Origin: a bacterium
GTDB lineage: Bacteria > Bdellovibrionota > UBA1018
Direction: 5' to 3'
Length of the DNA: 64,000 nucleotides
Assembly: GCA_019751945.1 (NCBI GenBank)
Contig: JAIEMT010000007.1
Span: 2,608-66,607 of the forward strand
Below, piece after piece: positions 10,593 to 28,757 of the stretch. A program made the translations under genes and the position numbers. Numbering within the stretch: position 1 is the stretch's first letter; each line of letters starts with the position of its first letter. The notes beneath the pieces are model-generated. The model made no database searches. It had not been told where the DNA came from and worked only from the letters and a program-made list of their open reading frames with translations.

Positions 10593-11069
10593 TCAAACAG
10601 GGGTACTGGGCAAGATCTTCCCGGCTTCAGAGCTCGCAAAGGCGGCTCGGAAGCGCGCGATGCGCTGAACGGTGCCACGGACCTCCTGGGCTCCAAACTT
10701 CTGCTCGAAGTAATTTTCAACGGAGTCAATTGTTTGAATGAGCTTCACAGCCAGGCGGCGCCCCTCCGGCCTCAGGATGAGCTGATAGCTCCGGGCGTCT
10801 TTTTCATTGAGCTTTCGTCGGAGCAGGCGCCTCTTCTCAAGGTGGGAAACGCCATGGCTAATATTGCCGCGAGTTGTCCCTAGAATATCAGCGAGCTGGG
10901 ACGGACTTACGGCGTCGTTCTTCTCGAAAAACAAGGAGATCAAAATCAAGGCTTGCATGAGGTTGCAGTTCTCTTGCTTGAGCTTGGAATTCAGCCCTCT
11001 TAGGATCGTGTCATAGCTAGATCCGATGGCCAGAAGCAGGCTGTTTTGAACGAATTTTTCGATTTTCAT
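10593..11069 (-). CDS. MarR family transcriptional regulator
   Basis: 158 aa with a winged-helix MarR signature (LSPSQLADILGTTRGNISHGVSHLEKRRLLRRKLNEKDARSYQLILRPEG). Divergent from bioB. Confidence 0.7.
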   Translation of the reverse strand: MKIEKFVQNSLLLAIGSSYDTILRGLNSKLKQENCNLMQALILISLFFEKNDAVSPSQLADILGTTRGNISHGVSHLEKRRLLRRKLNEKDARSYQLILRPEGRRLAVKLIQTIDSVENYFEQKFGAQEVRGTVQRIARFRAAFASSEAGKILPSTPV

Positions 11070-11179
11070 GATGGACTAATCCGATTTCTAAATAGTTTAA
11101 GTCGTCAACTATCTAGCACTAAATCTATATCGCTTCCAATCTTATTTAATTCCAATAGAAAGCGTTTCCTGGCAAATGA

Positions 11180-12121
11180 TTGTCCATGGAAAACAATCTA
11201 TTAGCCCAAGCCGAAGCTCTTTATAACCAACCCTTTATGGACCTGCTCTATCAGGCTCATCAAGTGCATCGACAACACCACGACCCCGCAGAAATTCAAC
11301 GCTGCACTTTGCTCTCCATCAAAACCGGGGGCTGCCCTGAAGATTGTTCGTACTGCCCGCAATCGGCGCACTACGATACTGGCTTGGAACGCGAAAATTT
11401 AATGCCACTCGAGAAGGTTCGAGAAGCCGCCAAGAACGCCTCAGCCAATGGCGCTCAACGATTTTGCATGGGCGCCGCGTGGAGAAATGTGAAGGACGGA
11501 CCCGAATTCGACCGCGTTTTAGAAATGGTCAAAATCGTGAAAGCGGAAAACATGGAAGCCTGCGTGACGCTCGGAATGCTGACGGAAAGCCAAGCTCAGC
11601 GTCTCAAAGAAGCGGGTCTCGATGCTTACAATCACAACTTAGATTCCAGCCGCGAATTTTATGAAAAAATTATTCACACGAGGAACTATGACGACCGACT
11701 CAATACACTGAAAGCTTGCCGAAGTGCTGGCCTCACCGTTTGTAGCGGCGGAATCATTGGCATGGGGGAATCCGTGAAAGACCGTTGCGGACTCCTGGCT
11801 GAACTTGCTGCTTTGGATCCCCAACCTGAGTCAGTTCCGATCAACTTACTGATTCCCGTTGCTGGCACACCTCTCGAAAAGTCGAAGGAAGTCGATCCGA
11901 TTGATTTGGTGAAAACCATCGCTGTTGCCAGAATTCTCATGCCGAAATCGCGCGTTCGCCTTTCGGCCGGCCGAATCTCGCTCACCAAAGAAGCCCAGGT
12001 TTTGGCGTTCTTTGCTGGAGCTAACTCTGTTTTCTTAGGAGAGACCCTACTCACACGCCCGAATCCCACCCCGGATCAAGATCATCAGCTGTTGTCGAGC
12101 TTGAGTGGGTCTGTGCACTGA
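11180..12121 (+). CDS. bioB: Biotin synthase (radical SAM)
   Basis: 313 aa. CxxxCxxC radical-SAM motif ([13 protein letters not shown]). First gene of the bio operon. Confidence 0.9.
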
Positions 12122-13222
12122 GTGGATTTTAACCCTCACTTCGAAAAAATTATTCGCGAGTTAGAAGCTGCTTCTCAGCACAGGAGCTTGAAGCCCCGAA
12201 GTGGTGTTGATTTCTCTTCCAATGATTATTTAGGATTTAGCGAAGATAAGATTCTTCGTCAGCGCATTCTTGCTCGTTTAGAAAATCTTCCCACCGGGTC
12301 AACCGGATCGCGCCTCCTCCGAGGAGAAAACGAAGTTTACTCACAAGCTGAAGCCACGCTGGCTCGTTTCTCAGCACGAGAAGCTGCGATTATTTTTCCC
12401 TCGGGATATCAGGCTAACTTGGGATTATTGAGCGGGCTTGTGGGCCCTAACGATGTCGTGTTTTCAGATCAATTCAATCACGCCTCGATCATCGACGGCA
12501 TTCGACTCAGTCGTGCGCAAAAGAAAGTTTACCCTCATTGTGATCTGGGACAGTTAGAAGAACTCCTTCGCACGACTTCCAGCAACGGCCTAAAACTGAT
12601 CGTGACCGAATCGATTTTCAGCATGGACGGCGATCGCGCTCCACTCAGTGACTTGGCAGATCTAGCCGAGAAATATGAAGCAGGTTTGGTGGTGGATGAA
12701 GCGCATGCCACTGGGCTGTACGGATCGGGCTTGGTTCAAGAACTTCTCCTAACCGATCGCGTGTTGGCCACACAACATACGGGCGGAAAGGCCCTCGGCG
12801 TCGGTGGAGCCTGGATTGCCTGCAGCGCGGCCCTAAAAGATTACCTCGTAAACTTTTCAAGGCCCCTCATTTTTTCAACGGCACCCATTCCTGCTCTAGC
12901 GGTATCACTCGAAGAATCCGTCCTACACTTGTCCAGCGCAGGACCCGAGCAAATTGAAGCGCTTTGGCGTCACTGTAGTTTATTGAGCGCAAGCTTGAAC
13001 CTTCGTCAAATACGCGGTCCTATTTTTCCGTACATCTTGGGTGATAATGCATCTGCACTTCGCATGAGCCAAAAACTCATTGCCGCAGGTCTCGATGTGC
13101 GCGCCATTCGACCCCCCACAGTTCCGGAAGGAACTGCCCGCCTTCGAATGACGATTCACGCGGATCAAGATCCGAAGGACATTCAGAAACTCACGCGGAT
13201 TCTGCAGGAGTCGATGTCATGA
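12122..13222 (+). CDS. bioF: 8-amino-7-oxononanoate synthase
   Basis: 366 aa alpha-oxoamine synthase. PLP-lysine region GTLGKALGVGGAW and VVDEAHATGLYG. GTG start directly after the bioB stop. Operon context supports bioF rather than kbl or spt. Confidence 0.8.
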   Translation: MDFNPHFEKIIRELEAASQHRSLKPRSGVDFSSNDYLGFSEDKILRQRILARLENLPTGSTGSRLLRGENEVYSQAEATLARFSAREAAIIFPSGYQANLGLLSGLVGPNDVVFSDQFNHASIIDGIRLSRAQKKVYPHCDLGQLEELLRTTSSNGLKLIVTESIFSMDGDRAPLSDLADLAEKYEAGLVVDEAHATGLYGSGLVQELLLTDRVLATQHTGGKALGVGGAWIACSAALKDYLVNFSRPLIFSTAPIPALAVSLEESVLHLSSAGPEQIEALWRHCSLLSASLNLRQIRGPIFPYILGDNASALRMSQKLIAAGLDVRAIRPPTVPEGTARLRMTIHADQDPKDIQKLTRILQESMS

Positions 13223-13824
13223 GTACTCCCGGAATCTTCGTCACTGGAACCGATACGGGCGTGGGAAAAACAGTCGTATCGGGGTTACTCATCTCTGCCA
13301 TCCGGGATTGGAAGGGTCAGGTAGGATACTTTAAACCCGTCCAAACTGGATCTGATTCTGACACCCAAACCATTGCTCAACTCACGGGGCTCAACCCTCC
13401 ATCTCTGGCAGTTCCTGTTTACGAATTTCCGGAACCCATTGCTCCTCACCGCGCGGCGTCGCTTCATGGCGCTCACATTGAGATTGAAAAAATTCAGAGC
13501 GCCTGGGAAAGCCTTCCCAAAAATTTTTGGATCGTCGAAGGGGCAGGGGGGATTTGCACACCTCTTTCCAATACAACTCAGATTCTCGACATTCCCAAAG
13601 CGCTCGAGTTACCAATCGTAATTGTGGCCGCTTCGCGCCTAGGAACCATTAATCACACTCTACTGACCTATCAGCAGGCTCGTGCAAAAGGTTTGCGGGT
13701 TTTAGGAATTATTGTCACTGGAGAAGAAGATCCCGAATTAGTGAGCTACCTAAAAAAGGGGTTGGATCTCCCCGCTATTTCTAAGTCAGAAATCCCGACT
13801 TGGCTGAAAGGGGTGTTGCAGTGA
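13219..13824 (+). CDS. bioD: Dethiobiotin synthetase
   Basis: 201 aa. P-loop GTDTGVGKT. ATGA overlap with bioF. Confidence 0.85.
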   Translation: MSTPGIFVTGTDTGVGKTVVSGLLISAIRDWKGQVGYFKPVQTGSDSDTQTIAQLTGLNPPSLAVPVYEFPEPIAPHRAASLHGAHIEIEKIQSAWESLPKNFWIVEGAGGICTPLSNTTQILDIPKALELPIVIVAASRLGTINHTLLTYQQARAKGLRVLGIIVTGEEDPELVSYLKKGLDLPAISKSEIPTWLKGVLQ

Positions 13825-15089
13825 ACACCCTTTCAAATCGAGACGCTCAGGTGGTTTGGCATCCCTATTCTCAACCAGGCAGAGACAAAATGGTGCTGCC
13901 AGTGTTGTCAGCTCAGGGCGCTTACCTACATCTAGAAGATGGCAGCAAAGTCTTGGATGCCATCTCGTCATGGTGGGTAAATATTCACGGACACTCGCAC
14001 CCGAAAATTGCAGCGGCAATTGCAGAACAGGCGGCGAAACTCGAACACGTGATTTTTTCGGGTTTTACTCATGAACCCGCTGTACGCCTAGCAGAAATAT
14101 TGCTCGAGGCTACCCAGTCACGGGGCGCTCCGTATCGAAAGGTTTTCTACTCTGACAACGGTTCCACAGCGGTCGAAGTCGCTCTGAAAATGGCCTACCA
14201 ATATTTTCAGAATCGAAAAGTTCAGGGCCGAGAACGCTTCATTGCTCTGCGCGGCTCCTATCACGGCGACACTTTGGGCGCGATGGCGGTGGGAGATCCG
14301 GAAGGATTTCACTCACGATTCAAACGCCTCCTACCGGCAGTAGATTTTATCGAACCAGGGGACATCGTCGCCTTAGAATCCCTGCTTCAAAAAAACCCAG
14401 GCCAGTATGCCGCATTTATTTTTGAGCCGTTGATTCAAGGCGCCGAAGGAATGAAAACTTATAGCCCTGTATTTCTAAAGTCTGCGATGGCACTTTGCCG
14501 GGATAACGAAGTTCTCACCATCGGAGATGAAGTCTTTACAGGCTTCTATCGCACCGGCACCCGCTTTGCCTTTGAACAACTCGGCATGGCTCCAGATCTT
14601 CTCTGCATTTCCAAAGGAATTACGGGAGGGTTTCTTCCCCTTTCAGCAACTTTAGCGACGGGGCAAGTTTTTGAGGCCTTCGTTTCATCCGAGATGAGAG
14701 ACGCTTTTTTACACGGACATTCCTATACCGCAAATCCAATTGCCTGCGCGGCAGCGCTAGCATCCTGGGAAATATTGAACTCTGAGGAATGCCAGAAAAC
14801 TATTCGAACGATTTGCGAAACAACGAAGGAATGTGTGTCCCAATTTGAGGGACATCCGAAAGTGAAATCCGTGCGCACGGTGGGAACTATTGGTGCCGTC
14901 GAAGTCCATCAAAAAGATACTTACTACTCCGTTGCGAAGGAAAAGATCATTGCGGCCGCGGTACGCGAGGGGGTTCTACTGAGACCTCTCGGAAATGTTC
15001 TCTATTCCGTACCCCCTTACTGCGTGACTCGCCAGGAAGTTCAGAAAATTTACAAAACACTAGGAGATCTCATCCATGAATACTTTTGA
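13800..15089 (+). CDS. bioA: Adenosylmethionine-8-amino-7-oxononanoate aminotransferase
   Basis: 429 aa class-III aminotransferase (WHPYSQ..., SYHGDTLGAMAVG, CISKGITGGF with PLP-Lys). An alternative GTG start at 13821 would give a 4-nt GTGA overlap with bioD. Confidence 0.85.
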   Translation: MAERGVAVNTLSNRDAQVVWHPYSQPGRDKMVLPVLSAQGAYLHLEDGSKVLDAISSWWVNIHGHSHPKIAAAIAEQAAKLEHVIFSGFTHEPAVRLAEILLEATQSRGAPYRKVFYSDNGSTAVEVALKMAYQYFQNRKVQGRERFIALRGSYHGDTLGAMAVGDPEGFHSRFKRLLPAVDFIEPGDIVALESLLQKNPGQYAAFIFEPLIQGAEGMKTYSPVFLKSAMALCRDNEVLTIGDEVFTGFYRTGTRFAFEQLGMAPDLLCISKGITGGFLPLSATLATGQVFEAFVSSEMRDAFLHGHSYTANPIACAAALASWEILNSEECQKTIRTICETTKECVSQFEGHPKVKSVRTVGTIGAVEVHQKDTYYSVAKEKIIAAAVREGVLLRPLGNVLYSVPPYCVTRQEVQKIYKTLGDLIHEYF

Positions 15090-15714
15090 AAATCTACTTG
15101 GCTACTTCAAAAAGGATTCTATGCTCCACGCCCGGTTCATCAATACGATTAGCCTCCTGGAATACATCGGCGCTCGAAAAATTCTAAAAAGCCAACATGA
15201 AGGTGCCATTTCCGCAACCGTACTGGGGCACGTTTCAGAGGAAATTCGCCATGCTCAAATCTTTAAAAGGGTGGCCTTGAAAATGAGCGGCGGCAAGCTC
15301 CCTACCTACGACGATCAATACCTGCTCGCTGGTCCCGCAGCTCGCGACTACTTTCAAGGTCTGGATCACGGAATTGCTGCCGAATTGGAAATTCCAAACG
15401 GCTGGTTGAACTACCTGTACTCCACTCTGCTCATCGAAGAACGCGCTGGAAAGATCTACCCCAGTTACAATCTCTTTCTGGGCGAACAAGGCTTCCCAGG
15501 GGTTCTGGAAGCCATCGTCCTAGAAGAAAATGAACATTTGAAAGACGTGTACGATTTTTTAGGAGAAGCGGACGCCGAAAAGATGGAAATGCGCCTGGTT
15601 CGAATGCGCGCGCTAGAAGAACGCCTTTACGACGCTTTTATGAAGCAAGCATTGACCGAGTGCCAGGTTCACGTACAAAATGAACCGTCATGGACAATCT
15701 CACCCACAGCTTGA
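15076..15714 (+). CDS. Ferritin-like di-iron carboxylate protein, function unknown, translationally coupled to bioA
   Basis: 212 aa. Two EXXH motifs (SEEIRHAQ and EENEHLKD), each preceded by a candidate ligand Glu (LLEYIGARK; LIEERAGK). This is the classic four-helix-bundle di-iron pattern. Start overlaps the bioA stop by 14 nt. Confidence 0.5.
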   Translation: MNTFENLLGYFKKDSMLHARFINTISLLEYIGARKILKSQHEGAISATVLGHVSEEIRHAQIFKRVALKMSGGKLPTYDDQYLLAGPAARDYFQGLDHGIAAELEIPNGWLNYLYSTLLIEERAGKIYPSYNLFLGEQGFPGVLEAIVLEENEHLKDVYDFLGEADAEKMEMRLVRMRALEERLYDAFMKQALTECQVHVQNEPSWTISPTA

Positions 15715-16895
15715 TAGGCGTCACGCTCGGGCGTGCGCTGCTAAGAAAATCTAAATCAAAAACGGAAGCAGCTTGGCGATCTTGCGCCGTCGTCACTGCA
15801 GTCGTGGCCAGCAATATTCCAGACGGCGATTTTCTTTTTTTTCTGAACCGCAGCAATGAAAAGCTGGGGTACCTGATTCACCATCGTGGATTTACTCACA
15901 CCATTTTTGTTTCCATTTTAGTTTCGGTAGTATTGGCGCTGGCGTTGTCGGCCATGTACAAACTCAATAAAAAGCAACGGCTCCAAAATATTGGACTCGC
16001 CATCATCGCCGGATTGTTGCACATCACCGCCGACAGCTGGAATGATTACGGGGTACACCCGTTCTGGCCCTTGTCCAACAACTGGTACTACGGCGACTCT
16101 ATATTCATTGTCGAACCACTCCTCATCTTTTCGATGCTGCCGCTCGCGTATTTCTCAGCTGAATCCGTCTGGGGAAAACGAATTTGGGTTGCAGCTGGAG
16201 CTGGGATTCTACTTCTGGCCTGGATATCCGCCTTCTCTCAGTGGTGGGTCGCGCTCTGGATCAGCTGCGTCGCAGGAGCATTTTACCTTTGGCAGAAGAG
16301 AAAGCCGCAGGGACTGCTTCCTGCAGTGACTGGAGTTTTGGCCACTCTTCTCCTTTTTTTCACGGCAGGATCTCTTGCGCGTAAAGAAATTCGATCGGTC
16401 CTCTCTCCAGGTGGAAAAAAAGATTCGGAGATTCGACAGCTCATGACGTCTCCTGCTCCCTCAAACCCACTCTGCTGGAGAACATTAGTGGCGACCGTAG
16501 ATCGTTATCAGAACTATGCGGGCCATATTGGATTTGTCAGCCTGGCTCCAAAGCTCATTCAGCCTCTGGAGTGCTTTGAGCAGCTCATTGGGAAGCAAAG
16601 CGCTCCACTCCGTCCGCCCCTGGTGGCTTCAACAGACAAGGTATTTTGGTACGCAGACTTTCAAGCGCCCGCGAAAGAGTTCATCCGCCTCGAAAATGAA
16701 AATTGTACAGTCGATGCGGTTTCTCGCTTTTTAAGAATCCCCTTCTGGAAGGATGCGGGAGAGAATGTTGTCATCGGAGATCTGCGATACGACCGAGAGA
16801 AACGACGAGGCTTCGCCGAAATTGAAGTTTCTAAGAAAGATAAAAATTGCTTAATTGGCGTTCCACCTTGGAACCGGCCGATTCAACTTGATTAA
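15690..16895 (+). CDS. Membrane-bound metal-dependent hydrolase (YdjM/DUF457-like) with a ~180-aa C-terminal extension
   Basis: 401 aa. The N-terminus MDNLTHSLIGVTLGRALL and HHRGFTHTIFVSI fit the LexA-regulon YdjM-type inner-membrane metal-hydrolase family. Several TM helices. Start overlaps the preceding ORF by 25 nt. Confidence 0.5.
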   Translation: MDNLTHSLIGVTLGRALLRKSKSKTEAAWRSCAVVTAVVASNIPDGDFLFFLNRSNEKLGYLIHHRGFTHTIFVSILVSVVLALALSAMYKLNKKQRLQNIGLAIIAGLLHITADSWNDYGVHPFWPLSNNWYYGDSIFIVEPLLIFSMLPLAYFSAESVWGKRIWVAAGAGILLLAWISAFSQWWVALWISCVAGAFYLWQKRKPQGLLPAVTGVLATLLLFFTAGSLARKEIRSVLSPGGKKDSEIRQLMTSPAPSNPLCWRTLVATVDRYQNYAGHIGFVSLAPKLIQPLECFEQLIGKQSAPLRPPLVASTDKVFWYADFQAPAKEFIRLENENCTVDAVSRFLRIPFWKDAGENVVIGDLRYDREKRRGFAEIEVSKKDKNCLIGVPPWNRPIQLD

Positions 16896-17326
16896 AGAGC
16901 GATACGCTTCGTTTTTACTTTGCCACCCCGTTCACACTCACGTGCCACGGTGATGATTTTTAAACGCGCACCATCGATTTCGCGCGGACCAATCTTAGCA
17001 GTCATGAATTCTTTGGCTTCGGCAGCAACGGGCGGGGAAGCACATTTCAAAAAACGGACAGCGACTTGCTCCGGTAAACCCTGCAATGCATAACCCACGA
17101 TCTTTGCGGGTGTCTTAGCGACAACTTCCGCTAATTCCATGTCCGGGAGCTTCACGATGTCTTCCCAGGAAAAGGTAAATTGTAAAATTCTTGCGGTGTA
17201 TTCGGGGTCTTCGACCTTACCGATATCGATCATCTTCTGGCGCTTCGATGCTGAAGTAGCCTCCCAAAGCTCTACAATCTGTCGAAATCCTTCAGGGGCT
17301 CTCTTATAGCGGCTGAAAACGCTCAT
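16892..17326 (-). CDS. Hypothetical cytoplasmic protein
   Basis: 144 aa ORF with good coding appearance, convergent with the hydrolase gene. No motif recognised confidently. Confidence 0.3.
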   Translation of the reverse strand: MSVFSRYKRAPEGFRQIVELWEATSASKRQKMIDIGKVEDPEYTARILQFTFSWEDIVKLPDMELAEVVAKTPAKIVGYALQGLPEQVAVRFLKCASPPVAAEAKEFMTAKIGPREIDGARLKIITVARECERGGKVKTKRIAL

Positions 17327-17461: not shown

Positions 17462-18022
17462 ATGAAATTTTTTATCCCGTATCTATTTATTGCTTCACTG
17501 TTGATCAGCCCCTGGGCCCGCGCTGAGAGCGCCACCCGCACCATTCGTCTGACCTGCCAAGGAAAAGGTGAACGCTACGAAGTCACCTTTGAAAAGGTCA
17601 CCACCCATGGTTGGGATGAAGTAGAAAACCGTGTGGTTCTTGTGTCAGATGTGACGAATGTGAAGTTTCCGCGAGGCTATTTAGATTCGGAAGCAATCCA
17701 AGCCTCGGGCACTATGGATCTCCATCCCATTCCTGCTTCGGCTACTGATGCTCCAGAAATCATCACTCCCGGCGCATTTTTAGAAGTGCTGGCGGATGTG
17801 AAGACTGCGGGGTCAAATGACTTGGAAGCTATTAAGAAAGTTCTGATCAAAGGGATTCTTCCAGATCCGTCGCTTGCGGAAGCGAATCACCCTGTCCGAG
17901 TTGACGCTTTTGTTTATCTACTCGACGCTGCCGGAAAACTCACCGGTCAGAACCGCATGGACATGGTGGATTTCAATCCCAGCGCAGCAGACATTATTTC
18001 GTTTTCTTGCACCAATAGCTAG
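17462..18022 (+). CDS. Secreted hypothetical protein
   Basis: 186 aa with a signal peptide (MKFFIPYLFIASLLISPWARA). Confidence 0.4.
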   Translation: MKFFIPYLFIASLLISPWARAESATRTIRLTCQGKGERYEVTFEKVTTHGWDEVENRVVLVSDVTNVKFPRGYLDSEAIQASGTMDLHPIPASATDAPEIITPGAFLEVLADVKTAGSNDLEAIKKVLIKGILPDPSLAEANHPVRVDAFVYLLDAAGKLTGQNRMDMVDFNPSAADIISFSCTNS

Positions 18023-18906
18023 AAGAGTTCGGCCGGAATTTCGGCTTCCTTATAATAGCTGCCGCCCCAACATCTCGTCCCCAGGCGTGTAACAGCGCAA
18101 CCATGTTCTGCCCCGATCGACATAGAGAGAACGTCTCGCAAATCACTCGGAGGACGGCATGCATACCTTCGACTACCCCAGCATTCGACTCCCTTTGCAC
18201 TCGACGCGCAGACACAGCTTCCCCCAGATGCAAGGAAGTTCACATCTTTCAGATTGGGAGGAACGTCGGTAGCTGCCGATCCCCAACACTTTACTTCACG
18301 ATTGAGCGTTAATGCACAAACATGGTCGTTGCCAGCCACCAGCTGAAGAGCGGGAGCAATTTTCGAGGGAATTCCTCTGTAAGTCTTTCCAAAAGCATCA
18401 GTACAAGTCACACCCGATTTCTTCATGAAACAGAAGAATGCGTCTCCAAACACGAAGCTATAAAAAGGATCTTTAGGATTGGCCGGAAAACTCACAGTGT
18501 TCCATCCGCTACCCCAGCATTGAATCCCTTTTGCCGAAAGAGCGCAGGTGTGATTCCCCATTGCTCGAAGTTCGTAAACATCTGTCAGATTGGAAGGAGG
18601 AGCGGTCATCCGCTGACCGCCGCACTTCACTCCAGATTTTCCAGAAATACAGTAGTGCGCATTTCCAACGGCGAGAAGGTCACCCGGCTCTGACGAAAGT
18701 TGATCCGGGTTTCGACCCCAGCATCTCGTATTGTTCGTGGTATTCGCGCAGGTGATTTGCTCACCCACTCCGATGCGAATAATGGCGTCTTCAAAAGCCT
18801 GAGCCGAATGAAGTCCGGTTGAAAAAAGAATTCCCAACGCTAAAAGGATCTTGTTCCGCATGATTTCCCCCGCAGGAATCATGCTGCGAGGAACAGCATT
18901 TTTCAA
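18019..18906 (-). CDS. Secreted RCC1-like repeat protein
   Basis: 295 aa with a signal peptide. Repeated HxCAL/CAx...GxxCWG units (CALSAKGIQCWGS, CALTLNREVKCWGS, CASSAKGVECWGS, CAVTRLGTRCWGG) resemble RCC1 beta-propeller blades. Confidence 0.45.
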   Translation of the reverse strand: MKNAVPRSMIPAGEIMRNKILLALGILFSTGLHSAQAFEDAIIRIGVGEQITCANTTNNTRCWGRNPDQLSSEPGDLLAVGNAHYCISGKSGVKCGGQRMTAPPSNLTDVYELRAMGNHTCALSAKGIQCWGSGWNTVSFPANPKDPFYSFVFGDAFFCFMKKSGVTCTDAFGKTYRGIPSKIAPALQLVAGNDHVCALTLNREVKCWGSAATDVPPNLKDVNFLASGGSCVCASSAKGVECWGSRRYACRPPSDLRDVLSMSIGAEHGCAVTRLGTRCWGGSYYKEAEIPAELF

Positions 18907-19514
18907 GGACCTAAGTAGCCGGGCAAACCTTGCGCCGCAGTATCGCGGGAAATAGCGAGAGCGTCTTTGACAGCCCGCCTAAAGTTGGGACGGGTAGGCA
19001 ACGTATCGGGCAAGAGAGTCACTCTGGAACGGAAAAACTGCGCCCATTGAAATTCTGCGTAAAGGACATCTGTCTTATTATAGCCCCCTGCGTCCCGAAC
19101 CGCCGAAGAGAGAGATCGATAGGGGTCGTCTTTCATTTCACGAAGGGACTGCGGTAGGTCCTTCACTTCCCTGGTGTGTCCAGTTTCATCGATCAAATAG
19201 ACAAATCCGTTTTTGATCATCTGATCCCAAAAGTCTTTCCAGCTAAGAGAACTCCAATCCTCTTCCAATTTAGCCGGAGCTACGGAGAATCCGCAGATCT
19301 CCAGCATCGCGACAGCATGGTGATGTCGATCGATTAGGAAAATACTTTTTCCGGGTCCATAAATAATGGGGATCTTCTTTTGGTCCACGGTGGCGCTTGC
19401 CCCGCAGATTTCTTGCGCCTTATTTTCCACTTCAAACATTCCAACCGCAAACTGTGTGGGCCGAAGCTGATCGAGCTGTACAGAAAGGAGGAGTGGAAGA
19501 AGCATCGAAACCAT
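18903..19514 (-). CDS. ParB/Srx-like nuclease-domain protein (hypothetical)
   Basis: 203 aa. LRPTQFAVG motif is characteristic of the ParB N-terminal/sulfiredoxin fold. 4-nt overlap with the upstream RCC1-like gene. Confidence 0.35.
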   Translation of the reverse strand: MVSMLLPLLLSVQLDQLRPTQFAVGMFEVENKAQEICGASATVDQKKIPIIYGPGKSIFLIDRHHHAVAMLEICGFSVAPAKLEEDWSSLSWKDFWDQMIKNGFVYLIDETGHTREVKDLPQSLREMKDDPYRSLSSAVRDAGGYNKTDVLYAEFQWAQFFRSRVTLLPDTLPTRPNFRRAVKDALAISRDTAAQGLPGYLGP

Positions 19515-19542: not shown

Positions 19543-20526
19543 TTGTCTACAAACGTTGAAAACTCGGCTATCTTTAAGAAAGAATCCATGCGCTCCAAAG
19601 CCCTCGCAGTGCTCATTCCGCTTTTGACGATCTCGCTGACTGCGTTAGCGGAAGACGAAATCCCACTCATGGAAGAAGCAGGCTCTGAAGCACCCGTGAC
19701 TTCCGAAGCTCCTGTGACAGCAACTCATTCGGATGAAACCACCGGCGACTTTGTAAAAATTCCTGCGCGAGTAGATAGTCTGGGAGCGGGGCAAAAAATC
19801 GTTCGGTTGAAATTCAGCGGCACCGGTATTCCCATGCAGGACGCCGTCATCATGATCTCTTCCGACAAAACGCGTGTCGCTGCGGCCAAAGTGGTCCGCA
19901 TCTTGGGAGGAATTCAATCCGTCGATGCCAAGATTCTTCGCAGCTATTCCAAAATCGAAAATTACCTGCGCATTGGAAGCACTGTGAATGTGAGCGTCCA
20001 TAAAGTAGGACTGGGAAAACTTCCCGAGAAAAACTTTGACGTCGAAATGGTTGCTCAACCCGCAATTAAAGCTGCTGAATGCAGCCGATCTCGCAGACGC
20101 TTTGGAATTTCAGCCGGAACGCTCGAAGGAGTTGTCGCTCTTTTCTCCGGGAAACTCAATTACCACCTCAATTGTTGGGCCCGAGTGAGCGCAGGCTATG
20201 GAATGACTCCCTCGACGACCTCCTCTCTGAGCATTATTCACGGTGGGCTCGACTTCACTGTTCCGGGCTGGAGTTTTTCTCCCGCCCTGGGGCTCAAAGT
20301 AGCTCTTATCTCCGCAAGTGCTACAGGCTTTGGTACCGCGCTGAGCGCTCTCGGACCCAACAGCAGCTCGATAACCAACGGAAATTCCGCCACACTTCCT
20401 TACGGAACTTTAGGATTTGATTGGGTTACAAACGGTGGATTTTATTTGGCAGCTGGAACAAATATCTTGCCGGTCCCGCAATTTGGTTTGGTGGGTTTTT
20501 ACTTCACCACGGGTTATTTCTTTTGA
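19543..20526 (+). CDS. Putative outer-membrane protein (Gly/Ser/Thr-rich beta-barrel-like C-terminal half)
   Basis: 327 aa with a signal peptide (LIPLLTISLTALA). C-terminal 130 aa are G/S/T/A-rich and end in an aromatic GYFF terminus. Confidence 0.4.
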   Translation: MSTNVENSAIFKKESMRSKALAVLIPLLTISLTALAEDEIPLMEEAGSEAPVTSEAPVTATHSDETTGDFVKIPARVDSLGAGQKIVRLKFSGTGIPMQDAVIMISSDKTRVAAAKVVRILGGIQSVDAKILRSYSKIENYLRIGSTVNVSVHKVGLGKLPEKNFDVEMVAQPAIKAAECSRSRRRFGISAGTLEGVVALFSGKLNYHLNCWARVSAGYGMTPSTTSSLSIIHGGLDFTVPGWSFSPALGLKVALISASATGFGTALSALGPNSSSITNGNSATLPYGTLGFDWVTNGGFYLAAGTNILPVPQFGLVGFYFTTGYFF

Positions 20527-24811: not shown

Positions 24812-25966
24812 ATGCGCCTGAGAAACCTCGTTATCTGGGCACTCCTTGACACCGCTCTGGGTTTTCCAATTGCCGCCCTTGCTTGCGAAAATGTTCGTCT
24901 GGATTTGGATCCCAAAGTCCTTGGAAAAGTGCCTGCCATGAAACAGGGAAAAATCTCTGCCTGTTTCAGCACTACCGCAGTTCAATTAATTGATGCTTAT
25001 CGATTTTCAAATGGAGACGTGGATTACAACTTCCTTTCCTCACCTATTGTTCTCGGGTCAGAGTCAGGAGACATCCTTTCTGAAGGGGGCACGGTAAAAG
25101 ATTCTCTGATACGAGCACAGTCCGTGGGCACTTGTAGCACGAGAGAAACGGCCCGCTTTTTAGGCAACGATCAAGGTTCCGAGTTTTTGGAGTTTTTAGC
25201 CAAAAACTATTCTCTCGCTCGTGGACGTTCCTACAATCCCTTGCTGAAACAGAACATCCAGTCCCTTTCTAAAACCCAATATTTCGAACAAGACAATGGC
25301 GGTAATTTCGAAAATCTGGATTCACTTCGATCGGTGACGTTTGCCAGAGACATGCCCAAAGTACAAAAAAAGCGTCCGAAGTATACTGCTGATCAAAAAA
25401 TGGCAGCTCAGGACATCTGTCAACGCTTGAAGACACTTGGATTAGAAGATGCTTCGGTAACTCGAATTCTGGAATTTCTCACAGAGTCCCGCCAGATTTT
25501 TATATCTCGCATTCTAGGCAGTCTCTGCAAAGAGAGAAAAAGTCTAAAATTCCTTCCAAATCCTACTATGGAAGACGCCTGGACTACGGGACCTTCCGGA
25601 GTAGCCCCACCCAATAGCGCTGTTCGTGAATCAAAAATTAATTTGGCCATCGACCAAGCCCTCAAAAACAAAAGACCAGTTGCTATCGAATTTTGCAATG
25701 AGGCAGTCACCTCTCTTGAGCATGAAGGAAAGTACAATGAGAAGGGCGAATGGATTTGTGAAAAGAACGGACAGCACGCGGCGGTAGTTGTGGGAAGCAA
25801 GACAAATGCTATCGGTGGTTGCTTCTACCTAGTTCGCGACTCTTACTGCGACCAATATCCGAAGCAATGGAGCGGTCTCAGTAAGAAAGACGTGTGTGCC
25901 GGGGGGCAGTACTGGATTCCTTCCGGTAGACTCTTAAAAAATACCCGCGCGGCAATACACTTTTAG
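24812..25966 (+). CDS. Secreted papain-like (C1-type) cysteine peptidase candidate
   Basis: 384 aa with a signal peptide. Candidate catalytic Cys (KISACFSTTAVQLIDA, compare CGSCWAFSTTGA), His (NGQHAAVVVGSK) and Asn/Trp region (YLVRDSYCDQYPKQWSG) in papain order. Confidence 0.5.
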   Translation: MRLRNLVIWALLDTALGFPIAALACENVRLDLDPKVLGKVPAMKQGKISACFSTTAVQLIDAYRFSNGDVDYNFLSSPIVLGSESGDILSEGGTVKDSLIRAQSVGTCSTRETARFLGNDQGSEFLEFLAKNYSLARGRSYNPLLKQNIQSLSKTQYFEQDNGGNFENLDSLRSVTFARDMPKVQKKRPKYTADQKMAAQDICQRLKTLGLEDASVTRILEFLTESRQIFISRILGSLCKERKSLKFLPNPTMEDAWTTGPSGVAPPNSAVRESKINLAIDQALKNKRPVAIEFCNEAVTSLEHEGKYNEKGEWICEKNGQHAAVVVGSKTNAIGGCFYLVRDSYCDQYPKQWSGLSKKDVCAGGQYWIPSGRLLKNTRAAIHF

Positions 25967-27590: not shown

Positions 27591-28757
27591 TCAGTTACAC
27601 TGCCAGGTTTCTTCCCACATCTTATCTTTGAAAACGTATCCTTTTTCCGTCAGACGGCTTACTGAACGACGATTGAAATCAATTGTAATGGTGTCGGCAA
27701 CACTCTTGCCAAAACCAATTTCCGTTTTTAGAAAAATTACTCCAGCAGCTTGCTTAGAGTCGTCGACCTTCCAGGCAAACTTATTGCGACCGGTGTTCTG
27801 AATTTCAGCTGTCGCATTAATTCCTAAGGCATTTGAGAGCACCTGCATGGAACCGTCTTCCTTCTTTTTCACTACGAGATGAGCGTGAGAAGGATTCGGA
27901 TCCTTAGGAGCAAAGTCCCGGCTTGTAGCGTCGCACTCCATCAACTTGGTTGAATCTTCCATCGGCGCGGTTTTGGCAACTTCAGGCAACCTTTCATCCA
28001 CCGGATCAGCCGTGCACTGAAAGGTCTGACTCACGACCGTGTGTTGGCCTTTTCCAAGAACGGCTAAAGAATCCTGACCTAATCGAGAAAAGGCCCCATA
28101 AGTGTCTTCAAAGGTCTGTTTAGTCACCTTCTTGTTGGTCAGATCGACCGTCACAATATCCAAGAAAGCGGGGGTTCTCCACTCTACCGGACCCGGAATA
28201 ACCTTGTAGGATCTCCAAAGATGGACAATGCCCTTTTTGGAGTCCATCCAATCCAAACAATAAGTATCGTTCGCTTCCAAGCGACCTTCCGCCGGAAGGA
28301 GCGTCTGAATGCCAACCGGATCGCCCTTGTATTCACCGTCCGAATAGTTCAAACGACGGCAGGACGGAAAACTCTTGGCGAAAAATGGACTCTTCTTCAG
28401 CCTGTTCCCAGTGTTCATGTTGTAATCCAGGGTTTCTACCGAGACGACAGGACCAGCGGGAACCTGGGATTCTAGCCAAATCTGGGATCCGACTTCGCCG
28501 ACAGGCGCGCTCATGGCTGAACCTCGAATCGTCAAGAGCGTGCGAACACCTGTATTGATCACTCCTTTTTCAGGCTTGATCCCCGTCGCTTTGGCCGAGT
28601 TTTCAGCAATGCATCGCAAAGCGGTGAAACCCTCCGGAGAATAAATGGCCGAATTATCAAAGACCGTTCCAGCATCGATGTTTTGAACCTCGGCAGTCCA
28701 AGCCGAGTGAGCGAGGCAGATACTGAATACGAATAAAATGTGTCGGATGGTTTTCAC
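27591..28757 (-). CDS. Secreted hypothetical protein
   Basis: 388 aa with a signal peptide (MKTIRHILFVFSICLAHSAWTA). Confidence 0.35.
   Translation of the reverse strand: MKTIRHILFVFSICLAHSAWTAEVQNIDAGTVFDNSAIYSPEGFTALRCIAENSAKATGIKPEKGVINTGVRTLLTIRGSAMSAPVGEVGSQIWLESQVPAGPVVSVETLDYNMNTGNRLKKSPFFAKSFPSCRRLNYSDGEYKGDPVGIQTLLPAEGRLEANDTYCLDWMDSKKGIVHLWRSYKVIPGPVEWRTPAFLDIVTVDLTNKKVTKQTFEDTYGAFSRLGQDSLAVLGKGQHTVVSQTFQCTADPVDERLPEVAKTAPMEDSTKLMECDATSRDFAPKDPNPSHAHLVVKKKEDGSMQVLSNALGINATAEIQNTGRNKFAWKVDDSKQAAGVIFLKTEIGFGKSVADTITIDFNRRSVSRLTEKGYVFKDKMWEETWQCN

Follow-up and report, generated by a model that had tools for sequence, protein, structure and literature searches.

How does a bacterium make biotin when its biotin operon holds none of the described genes for the pimeloyl thioester with which the pathway begins? 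The question is raised by a 64,000-nucleotide stretch of DNA (the window hereafter; contig JAIEMT010000007.1, positions 2,608 to 66,607, of assembly GCA_019751945.1) from a member of the UBA1018 lineage of Bdellovibrionota, in which bioB, bioF, bioD and bioA are followed by open reading frames (ORFs) of 212 and 401 codons. The initial annotation had read these two ORFs as a candidate module for the pimelate arm of biotin, with a di-iron oxygenase that cleaves an acyl chain and a membrane metal-hydrolase that releases or processes the product. The oxygenase half of that proposal is borne out by homology, as the 212-aa protein almost certainly belongs to the recently described BioE family and very probably makes the pimeloyl thioester for the operon; the hydrolase half is not, since the YdjM-like protein and BioE do not co-occur in any of 80 BioE-homologue loci or in six other YdjM contexts sampled. 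The six genes in question are as follows.

11180-12121, + strand: bioB, biotin synthase (TIGR00433, 393 bits against a cut-off of 225; Radical_SAM and BATS domains)
12122-13222, + strand: bioF, 8-amino-7-oxononanoate synthase, the user of the pimeloyl thioester (TIGR00858, PF00155)
13219-13824, + strand: bioD, dethiobiotin synthase (TIGR00347, 155 bits against a cut-off of 83)
13800-15089, + strand: bioA, S-adenosylmethionine (SAM):7-keto-8-aminopelargonate (KAPA) aminotransferase (TIGR00508, 522 bits against a cut-off of 405)
15076-15714, + strand: bioE-type ferritin-like di-iron oxygenase, 212 aa (predicted ligands E29, E56, H59, E121, E151 and H154)
15690-16895, + strand: YdjM/DUF457-family polytopic membrane protein, 401 aa, with a C-terminal beta-rich domain (PF04307)

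The six co-directional ORFs form one tightly packed string from 11180 to 16895, as had been described. The bioB and bioF genes abut, bioF and bioD overlap by 4 nt, and the overlaps first reported for bioA with the 212-aa ORF (14 nt) and for the latter with the ydjM-like gene (25 nt) are present in the sequence; the ATG at 15076 is preceded by GGAG 8 nt upstream. The BioF sequence matches TIGR00858 over its full length with 363 bits, short of the equivalog cut-off of 426. Taken as their longest ORFs, bioD and bioA overlap by 25 nt, and the GTG at 13821, which would leave a 4-nt GTGA overlap with bioD, is the more likely start of bioA; for bioB the ATG at 11186 is likewise the more likely start. 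Both revised starts come from the sequence together with gene calls on an identical contig.

BioE was published in December 2025 by two papers (PMC12704756, in PNAS; PMC12915131, in Adv Sci), and the precursor route that the initial annotation had taken to be undescribed is therefore already in the literature. The enzymes of Elizabethkingia meningoseptica (EmBioE) and Chryseobacterium indologenes (CiBioE) are ferritin-like di-iron oxygenases that bind approximately two Fe, require O2 and complement bioC, bioH and bioC/H mutants of E. coli, aerobically only (PMC12704756). BioE cuts C14, C16 and C18 acyl-CoA or acyl-acyl carrier protein (ACP) at C7-C8 to give pimeloyl-CoA or pimeloyl-ACP and a free Cn-7 acid, and each of the EmBioE ligands E26, E53, H56, E125, E155 and H158 is essential (PMC12704756). 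The Chlamydia psittaci enzyme (CpBioE) behaves likewise, with E41, E68, H71, E140, E170 and H173 as ligands (PMC12915131). Substitution of R31 in EmBioE blocks activity and substitution of K32 or R87 lowers it (the CpBioE counterparts are K46, K47 and K102); the authors tie basic residues of this kind to binding of the CoA or ACP carrier, modelled as phosphopantetheine contacts. F24 of EmBioE is also needed for activity.

The 212-aa protein of the window matched no model in Pfam or NCBIfam, even at E≤10, so there is no assignment to MiaE or the rubrerythrins; one Chryseobacterium BioE likewise lacks a Pfam family. For the comparison, fragments of EmBioE (residues 14-34, IHAKWLNTLSFMENAGARKIS; residues 116-139, SYLFVTYAIEVRADELYPVYQEAL) and four fragments of CpBioE were rebuilt by translating the mutagenesis primers in the supplement of the Adv Sci paper (PMC12915131). 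Used as queries, these fragments retrieved 3071 proteins. At the head of the list stood sequences from Chryseobacterium, Bergeyella and Pedobacter that were 201-207 aa long, and the exact EmBioE 14-34 peptide was present in 27 of the 120 top matches. The window protein is 31-37% identical to the top BioE matches over approximately 190 residues (blastp E 1e-23 to 1e-28) and scored 103.6 bits (E 6e-34) against a profile of 120 Weeksellaceae/Sphingobacteriaceae-type BioE proteins, with the match covering profile positions 3-200 of 205. The primer-derived EmBioE and CpBioE peptides align with window residues 17-37, 48-65, 112-135 and 142-158.

The di-iron motif first read from the sequence is real: E29, E56-x2-H59, E121 and E151-x2-H154 align with the six BioE ligands, to which they are identical, and none of the six varies in an alignment of 40 homologues of the protein. 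Their spacing is 27-3-62-30-3 compared with 27-3-69-30-3 in EmBioE and CpBioE, because a single indel makes the loop between the second and third ligand helices 7 residues shorter in the window protein. R34, K35 and R90 stand at the positions of EmBioE R31, K32 and R87, and the CpBioE pocket residues T136, I139, Y147 and Y150 are identical in the window protein. The fold is ferritin-like, and as with the characterised BioE enzymes, which are of similar size (approximately 205-212 aa), the closest solved structures are of the aldehyde-deformylating-oxygenase type (cADO, a cyanobacterial enzyme), with Dps and ferritin far lower. MiaE-like di-iron proteins also count among the nearest known systems. 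BioE homologues make up a compact family, which at 50% identity forms 731 clusters among 1.84 billion representatives.

If the protein serves biotin synthesis, its homologues should lie beside bio genes, and the initial annotation had proposed that their neighbourhoods be mapped. Eighty loci that encode homologues were taken from a scan of one genome per species, and the window proteins were searched against them by tblastn. Bio genes lie within 10 kb in 60 of the 80 loci, with all four present in 43, and bioA is directly upstream on the same strand in 52, often overlapping the homologue or less than 100 nt away. Of the 62 loci for which 5 kb or more of upstream sequence is available, 52 are bio-linked. 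The hosts of the 80 loci belong to Bdellovibrionota, Gamma- and Alphaproteobacteria (including Defluviicoccus vanus), Acidobacteriota, Kapaibacteriota and Mucilaginibacter. A neighbour-joining tree places the Bacteroidota BioE proteins on a single branch and shows bio-linked members on every major branch. These counts mean that the BioE-homologue family as a whole behaves as a biotin gene.

The operon also lacks any other evident supplier of pimelate. It contains no bioC/H/G/J/K/V/W/I/Z/U-type gene, in agreement with the initial annotation, and 30 other ORFs of the window with a compatible size include no BioW, P450, alpha/beta-hydrolase or beta-ketoacyl-ACP synthase (KAS) III; the sole methyltransferase that they encode is PrmC-like. 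The 212-aa protein is the only candidate pimelate source in the operon or in the 30 ORFs tested. Like the characterised BioE enzymes, it is encoded with late biotin genes, here in a 64-kb stretch in which the operon and those 30 ORFs show none of the other pimeloyl routes.

Sequence homology, residue conservation, fold and genomic linkage are shown here, and from these we infer a chemistry, a co-transcription and a regulation that would run as follows. The genes bioB-bioF-bioD-bioA-bioE would form an operon in which BioE binds two irons through E29, E56/H59, E121 and E151/H154 and uses O2 and an external reductant encoded outside the operon. The enzyme would oxidatively cut C14-C18 acyl-ACP or acyl-CoA at C7-C8, to yield pimeloyl-ACP or pimeloyl-CoA and a free Cn-7 fatty acid; BioF would join alanine to the pimeloyl thioester, after which BioA, BioD and BioB would complete biotin. 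Translation of bioE would be coupled to that of bioA, as its start overlaps the bioA end and it has its own Shine-Dalgarno sequence, and a divergently encoded MarR-family protein would probably control the operon through an intergenic palindrome. That a di-iron oxygenase provides the pimeloyl arm by oxidative C-C cleavage, as was first suggested for this locus, is thus very probable, the reaction having been proven for homologous BioE. The predicted overall reaction is the one carried out by BioI (CYP107H1) of B. subtilis, the O2-dependent C7-C8 cleavage of long-chain acyl-ACP to pimeloyl-ACP, but BioI is a haem-thiolate P450 of unrelated fold with no homology to the window protein.

Several observations count against this assignment. 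The full EmBioE sequence is absent from the top 120 matches, and the comparison with it was made through primer-derived fragments and genus-level relatives only. Identity to the characterised enzymes is only approximately 31-33%, below the 40% cut-off of the BioE authors, EmBioE F24 is replaced by Leu27, and the activity of the window-type clade is a predicted one. Twenty of the 80 homologue loci have no bio gene nearby. In two of them (L012, 8299-10594; L017, 8311-10591), both from Bdellovibrionales/Bacteriovoracaceae metagenome-assembled genomes (MAGs), the homologue follows a kdsA-like (DAHP_synth_1) gene and a ubiE/COQ5-type methyltransferase gene, and the gammaproteobacterial MAG CAVZRN01 has two paralogues (L039 and L047), one in a bio cluster and one alone. 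Finally, the absence of bioC/bioH or of other known routes covers the operon and 30 further ORFs of the 64-kb window only.

A rival explanation is that the 212-aa protein is a BioE-like paralogue with another substrate, such as a quinone, tRNA or lipid oxidase or hydroxylase, that merely rides on the bio operon. This would fit with a sequence of which only about a third of the residues are identical to characterised BioE, with the members outside bio clusters and with the two that follow a ubiE-type gene. We nevertheless consider it unlikely. In at least five phyla the gene keeps its place behind bioA, the basic residues for carrier binding and the pocket residues of BioE are retained, and there is no match to the Pfam models for MiaE, COQ7 or rubrerythrin at the permissive threshold given above. 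Moreover, the members without bio neighbours are nested among the bio-linked ones in the tree, and a BioE-like enzyme with another substrate would leave the operon with no pimelate source.

Another possibility is the two-component module as it was originally conceived, in which the YdjM-like membrane metal-hydrolase acts with the oxygenase, either to free pimelate or to remove the Cn-7 fragment. The two genes do overlap by 25 nt on the same strand with no terminator between them, and the YdjM-like family has invariant His and Asp residues in its membrane domain that are compatible with a metal site. However, no YdjM homologue was found in any of the 80 BioE-homologue loci, and none of six other YdjM contexts sampled had an adjoining bio gene or BioE homologue. 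In other loci, what lies downstream of the di-iron gene is varied and unrelated (msrAB, an ABC transporter ATPase, proS for prolyl-tRNA synthetase, purH and others). A releasing hydrolase would be needless because the published BioE product is a thioester that BioF uses, and EmBioE and CpBioE complement E. coli on their own. The window BioE ends in approximately 15 residues that are not conserved and have low confidence, the final ones lying inside the overlap with ydjM, and this tail would fit a recent juxtaposition of the two genes. Taken with the nature of the YdjM-like protein itself, described below, these results make the module a shade less probable still than a paralogue with another substrate.

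The 401-aa protein matches PF04307 (YdjM) with 98.6 bits against a cut-off of 29, over residues 1-179 only. As in E. coli YdjM, an inner-membrane protein of this family (PF04307/DUF457), the N-terminal 180 residues fit the family model, but the window protein is twice as long, with additional transmembrane helices and, at its C terminus, a beta-rich domain that carries four conserved cysteines. In E. coli, ydjM is presumably under SOS regulation. Many full-length homologues of approximately 390-440 aa, with the same conserved cysteines, are present in Bdellovibrionota, Myxococcota and Proteobacteria. No solved structural relative and no experimental function were found for the family, and the hydrolase activity ascribed to it is a putative one, from annotation only. 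The only hint of an acyl-carrier link is a homologue designated P0246 (locus L085, 948-7194), which ends a fatty-acid-synthase-like cluster of short-chain dehydrogenases, a FabA/ApeI-like dehydratase, two ketosynthases and an ACP-like gene; its overlap with this last gene is 25 nt, as long as the one seen in the window. We take this shared overlap to reflect conserved N-terminal coding sequence that holds a stop codon in another frame. The ydjM-like gene is probably co-transcribed with the operon, and its product is probably a lineage-specific neighbour that forms no conserved part of the biotin module; less likely, it could be a lineage-specific accessory that handles the Cn-7 fatty-acid by-product.

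It is highly improbable that the 212-aa protein is instead an iron-handling or oxidative-stress helper of rubrerythrin or ferritin type that guards or supplies the Fe-S enzyme BioB, in the manner of BsaP, as the ferritin-like fold and the labels 'rubrerythrin' or 'bacterioferritin' on some homologues might suggest, since those labels were assigned automatically, the window protein fits no rubrerythrin or ferritin model, its closest folds are substrate-oxidising di-iron enzymes and a catalytic role is proven for homologues.

With BioE as the preferred reading of the 212-aa protein, the window adds a predicted member of a divergent, Bdellovibrionota-centred BioE clade that is absent from the published BioE papers and is new here, together with its bioBFDA-bioE layout and its lack of BioL. 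The published distribution comprises several Bacteroidota families, Burkholderiaceae and Chlamydiaceae, at a cut-off of 40% identity to EmBioE (PMC12915131), and Bdellovibrionota are unmentioned in either paper (PMC12704756, PMC12915131); the hosts of window-type proteins (Bdellovibrionota, assorted uncultured Proteobacteria and Acidobacteriota) lie outside that list. The nearest relatives of all genes in the operon region are in metagenome-assembled Bdellovibrionota/Oligoflexia genomes, so that the host is probably an uncultured bacterium of this phylum. Gene order also differs, as bioE is the last of the bioBFDA-bioE series and overlaps bioA in the window, whereas Elizabethkingia has bioEFD plus bioBA. 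Other arrangements were seen among the loci: bioB-bioF-bioD-bioE with no bioA between in L002 and L003, two Bdellovibrionia loci from whose clusters bioA is missing, bioE followed by bioA in L038 and L050, and a divergent bioB in L030, L032, L033 and L039.

The gene string is bounded on both sides by genes on the opposite strand, the first of which adjoins the putative promoter region of the operon.

10593-11069, - strand: MarR-family gene, divergent from bioB, candidate regulator of the operon (PF12802 MarR_2, 35.8 bits against a cut-off of 27)
11092-11112, inverted repeat: palindrome ATAGTTTAAGTCGTCAACTAT, candidate operator in the MarR-bioB intergenic region
16892-17326, - strand: FliG_C-domain protein, 144 aa, convergent with the ydjM-like gene (PF01706, 44 bits)

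Known regulators of biotin operons include BirA, BioR (GntR family), BioQ (TetR family) and BioL (MocR family). The only regulator gene that adjoins the operon in the window is the MarR-family one, which stands in place of a BioL (MocR/GntR-type). Chlamydial BioE genes are also without BioL (PMC12915131), so BioL is not a defining partner of BioE itself. MarR homologues (30-61% identical) are encoded divergently upstream of bioB in 10 Bdellovibrionota loci, and palindromes are present in the same intergenic region, for example TTCAATAGTTGAAACGTTCAACTATTGAA in L027 and TCAATAGTTGAATTCATCAACTATTTA in L009. The pattern ATAGTT-N9-AACTAT has one match in the 64-kb window against 0.08 expected, and among the loci ATAGTT-N9-AACTA occurs only just upstream of bioB, in eight of them.

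Loci with the palindrome just upstream of bioB: L005, L009, L011, L013, L014, L016, L018 and L027

Across related loci the palindrome is conserved upstream of bioB in nine, with the sequence exact in eight. L081 also bears it but duplicates this part of the window exactly, and is left out of the list. A metagenome scan anchored on MarR yielded only four distant homologues (33-40% identical), with neither bioB nor the palindrome in any of the four flanks available, and the link between MarR and bio genes is therefore restricted to the BioE-anchored Bdellovibrionota loci. No paper on a MarR-type regulator of a biotin operon was found in a full-text literature search. Tentatively, and with slightly less than even confidence, we suggest that a MarR-family repressor, of a kind new for biotin operons, may act on the palindrome ATAGTTGA-N5-TCAACTAT and replace BirA, BioR, BioQ or BioL in this lineage. 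Divergence from the first bio gene and a palindrome in the shared promoter region are the usual layout for these repressors, but the protein family and the operator sequence differ from theirs and the candidate is known from sequence alone. The ligand of such a repressor might be a pathway intermediate or an acyl thioester.

The BioE pathway published in December 2025 has here been independently reproduced from sequence, and BioE-type genes reach beyond Bacteroidota, Chlamydiaceae and Burkholderiaceae. A bioBFDA operon ends with a BioE-type gene in Bdellovibrionota, in many uncultured Alpha- and Gammaproteobacteria, in Acidobacteriota and in Kapaibacteriota, and Pfam and NCBIfam at present have no family for the encoded proteins, which carry the label 'hypothetical' or 'rubrerythrin'. 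Predictions of biotin auxotrophy from genomes in these groups are therefore probably wrong. The divergent clade provides natural sequence variation for working out the ten-electron cleavage, and the MarR gene with its palindrome is a testable candidate for a new biotin regulator.

A scan for sigma-70 promoters upstream of bioB gave nothing convincing, and promoter-like sites were no commoner than in shuffled sequence. A conserved YTTGGCA box (11166-11179) lies 10-15 nt upstream of the bioB start, at the expected Shine-Dalgarno position, and stands at the same position in L005, L007, L009, L013, L015 and L016; bioE itself is preceded by an ordinary GGAG. A sigma-54-like reading of the TTGGCA box was dropped, because its spacing differs from locus to locus and it lies right against the start codon. 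At the other end of the string, the FliG_C gene and the ydjM-like gene share 4 nt at their ends; the encoded protein is the C-terminal domain of FliG alone, with no other flagellar gene adjoining. Several window ORFs of 186-388 aa have no Pfam match, for example 17462-18022, 19543-20526, 24812-25966 and 27591-28757, and a ParB-like nuclease domain protein (PF08857, 159 bits) adjoins an RCC1-repeat protein at 18019-19514 on the - strand.

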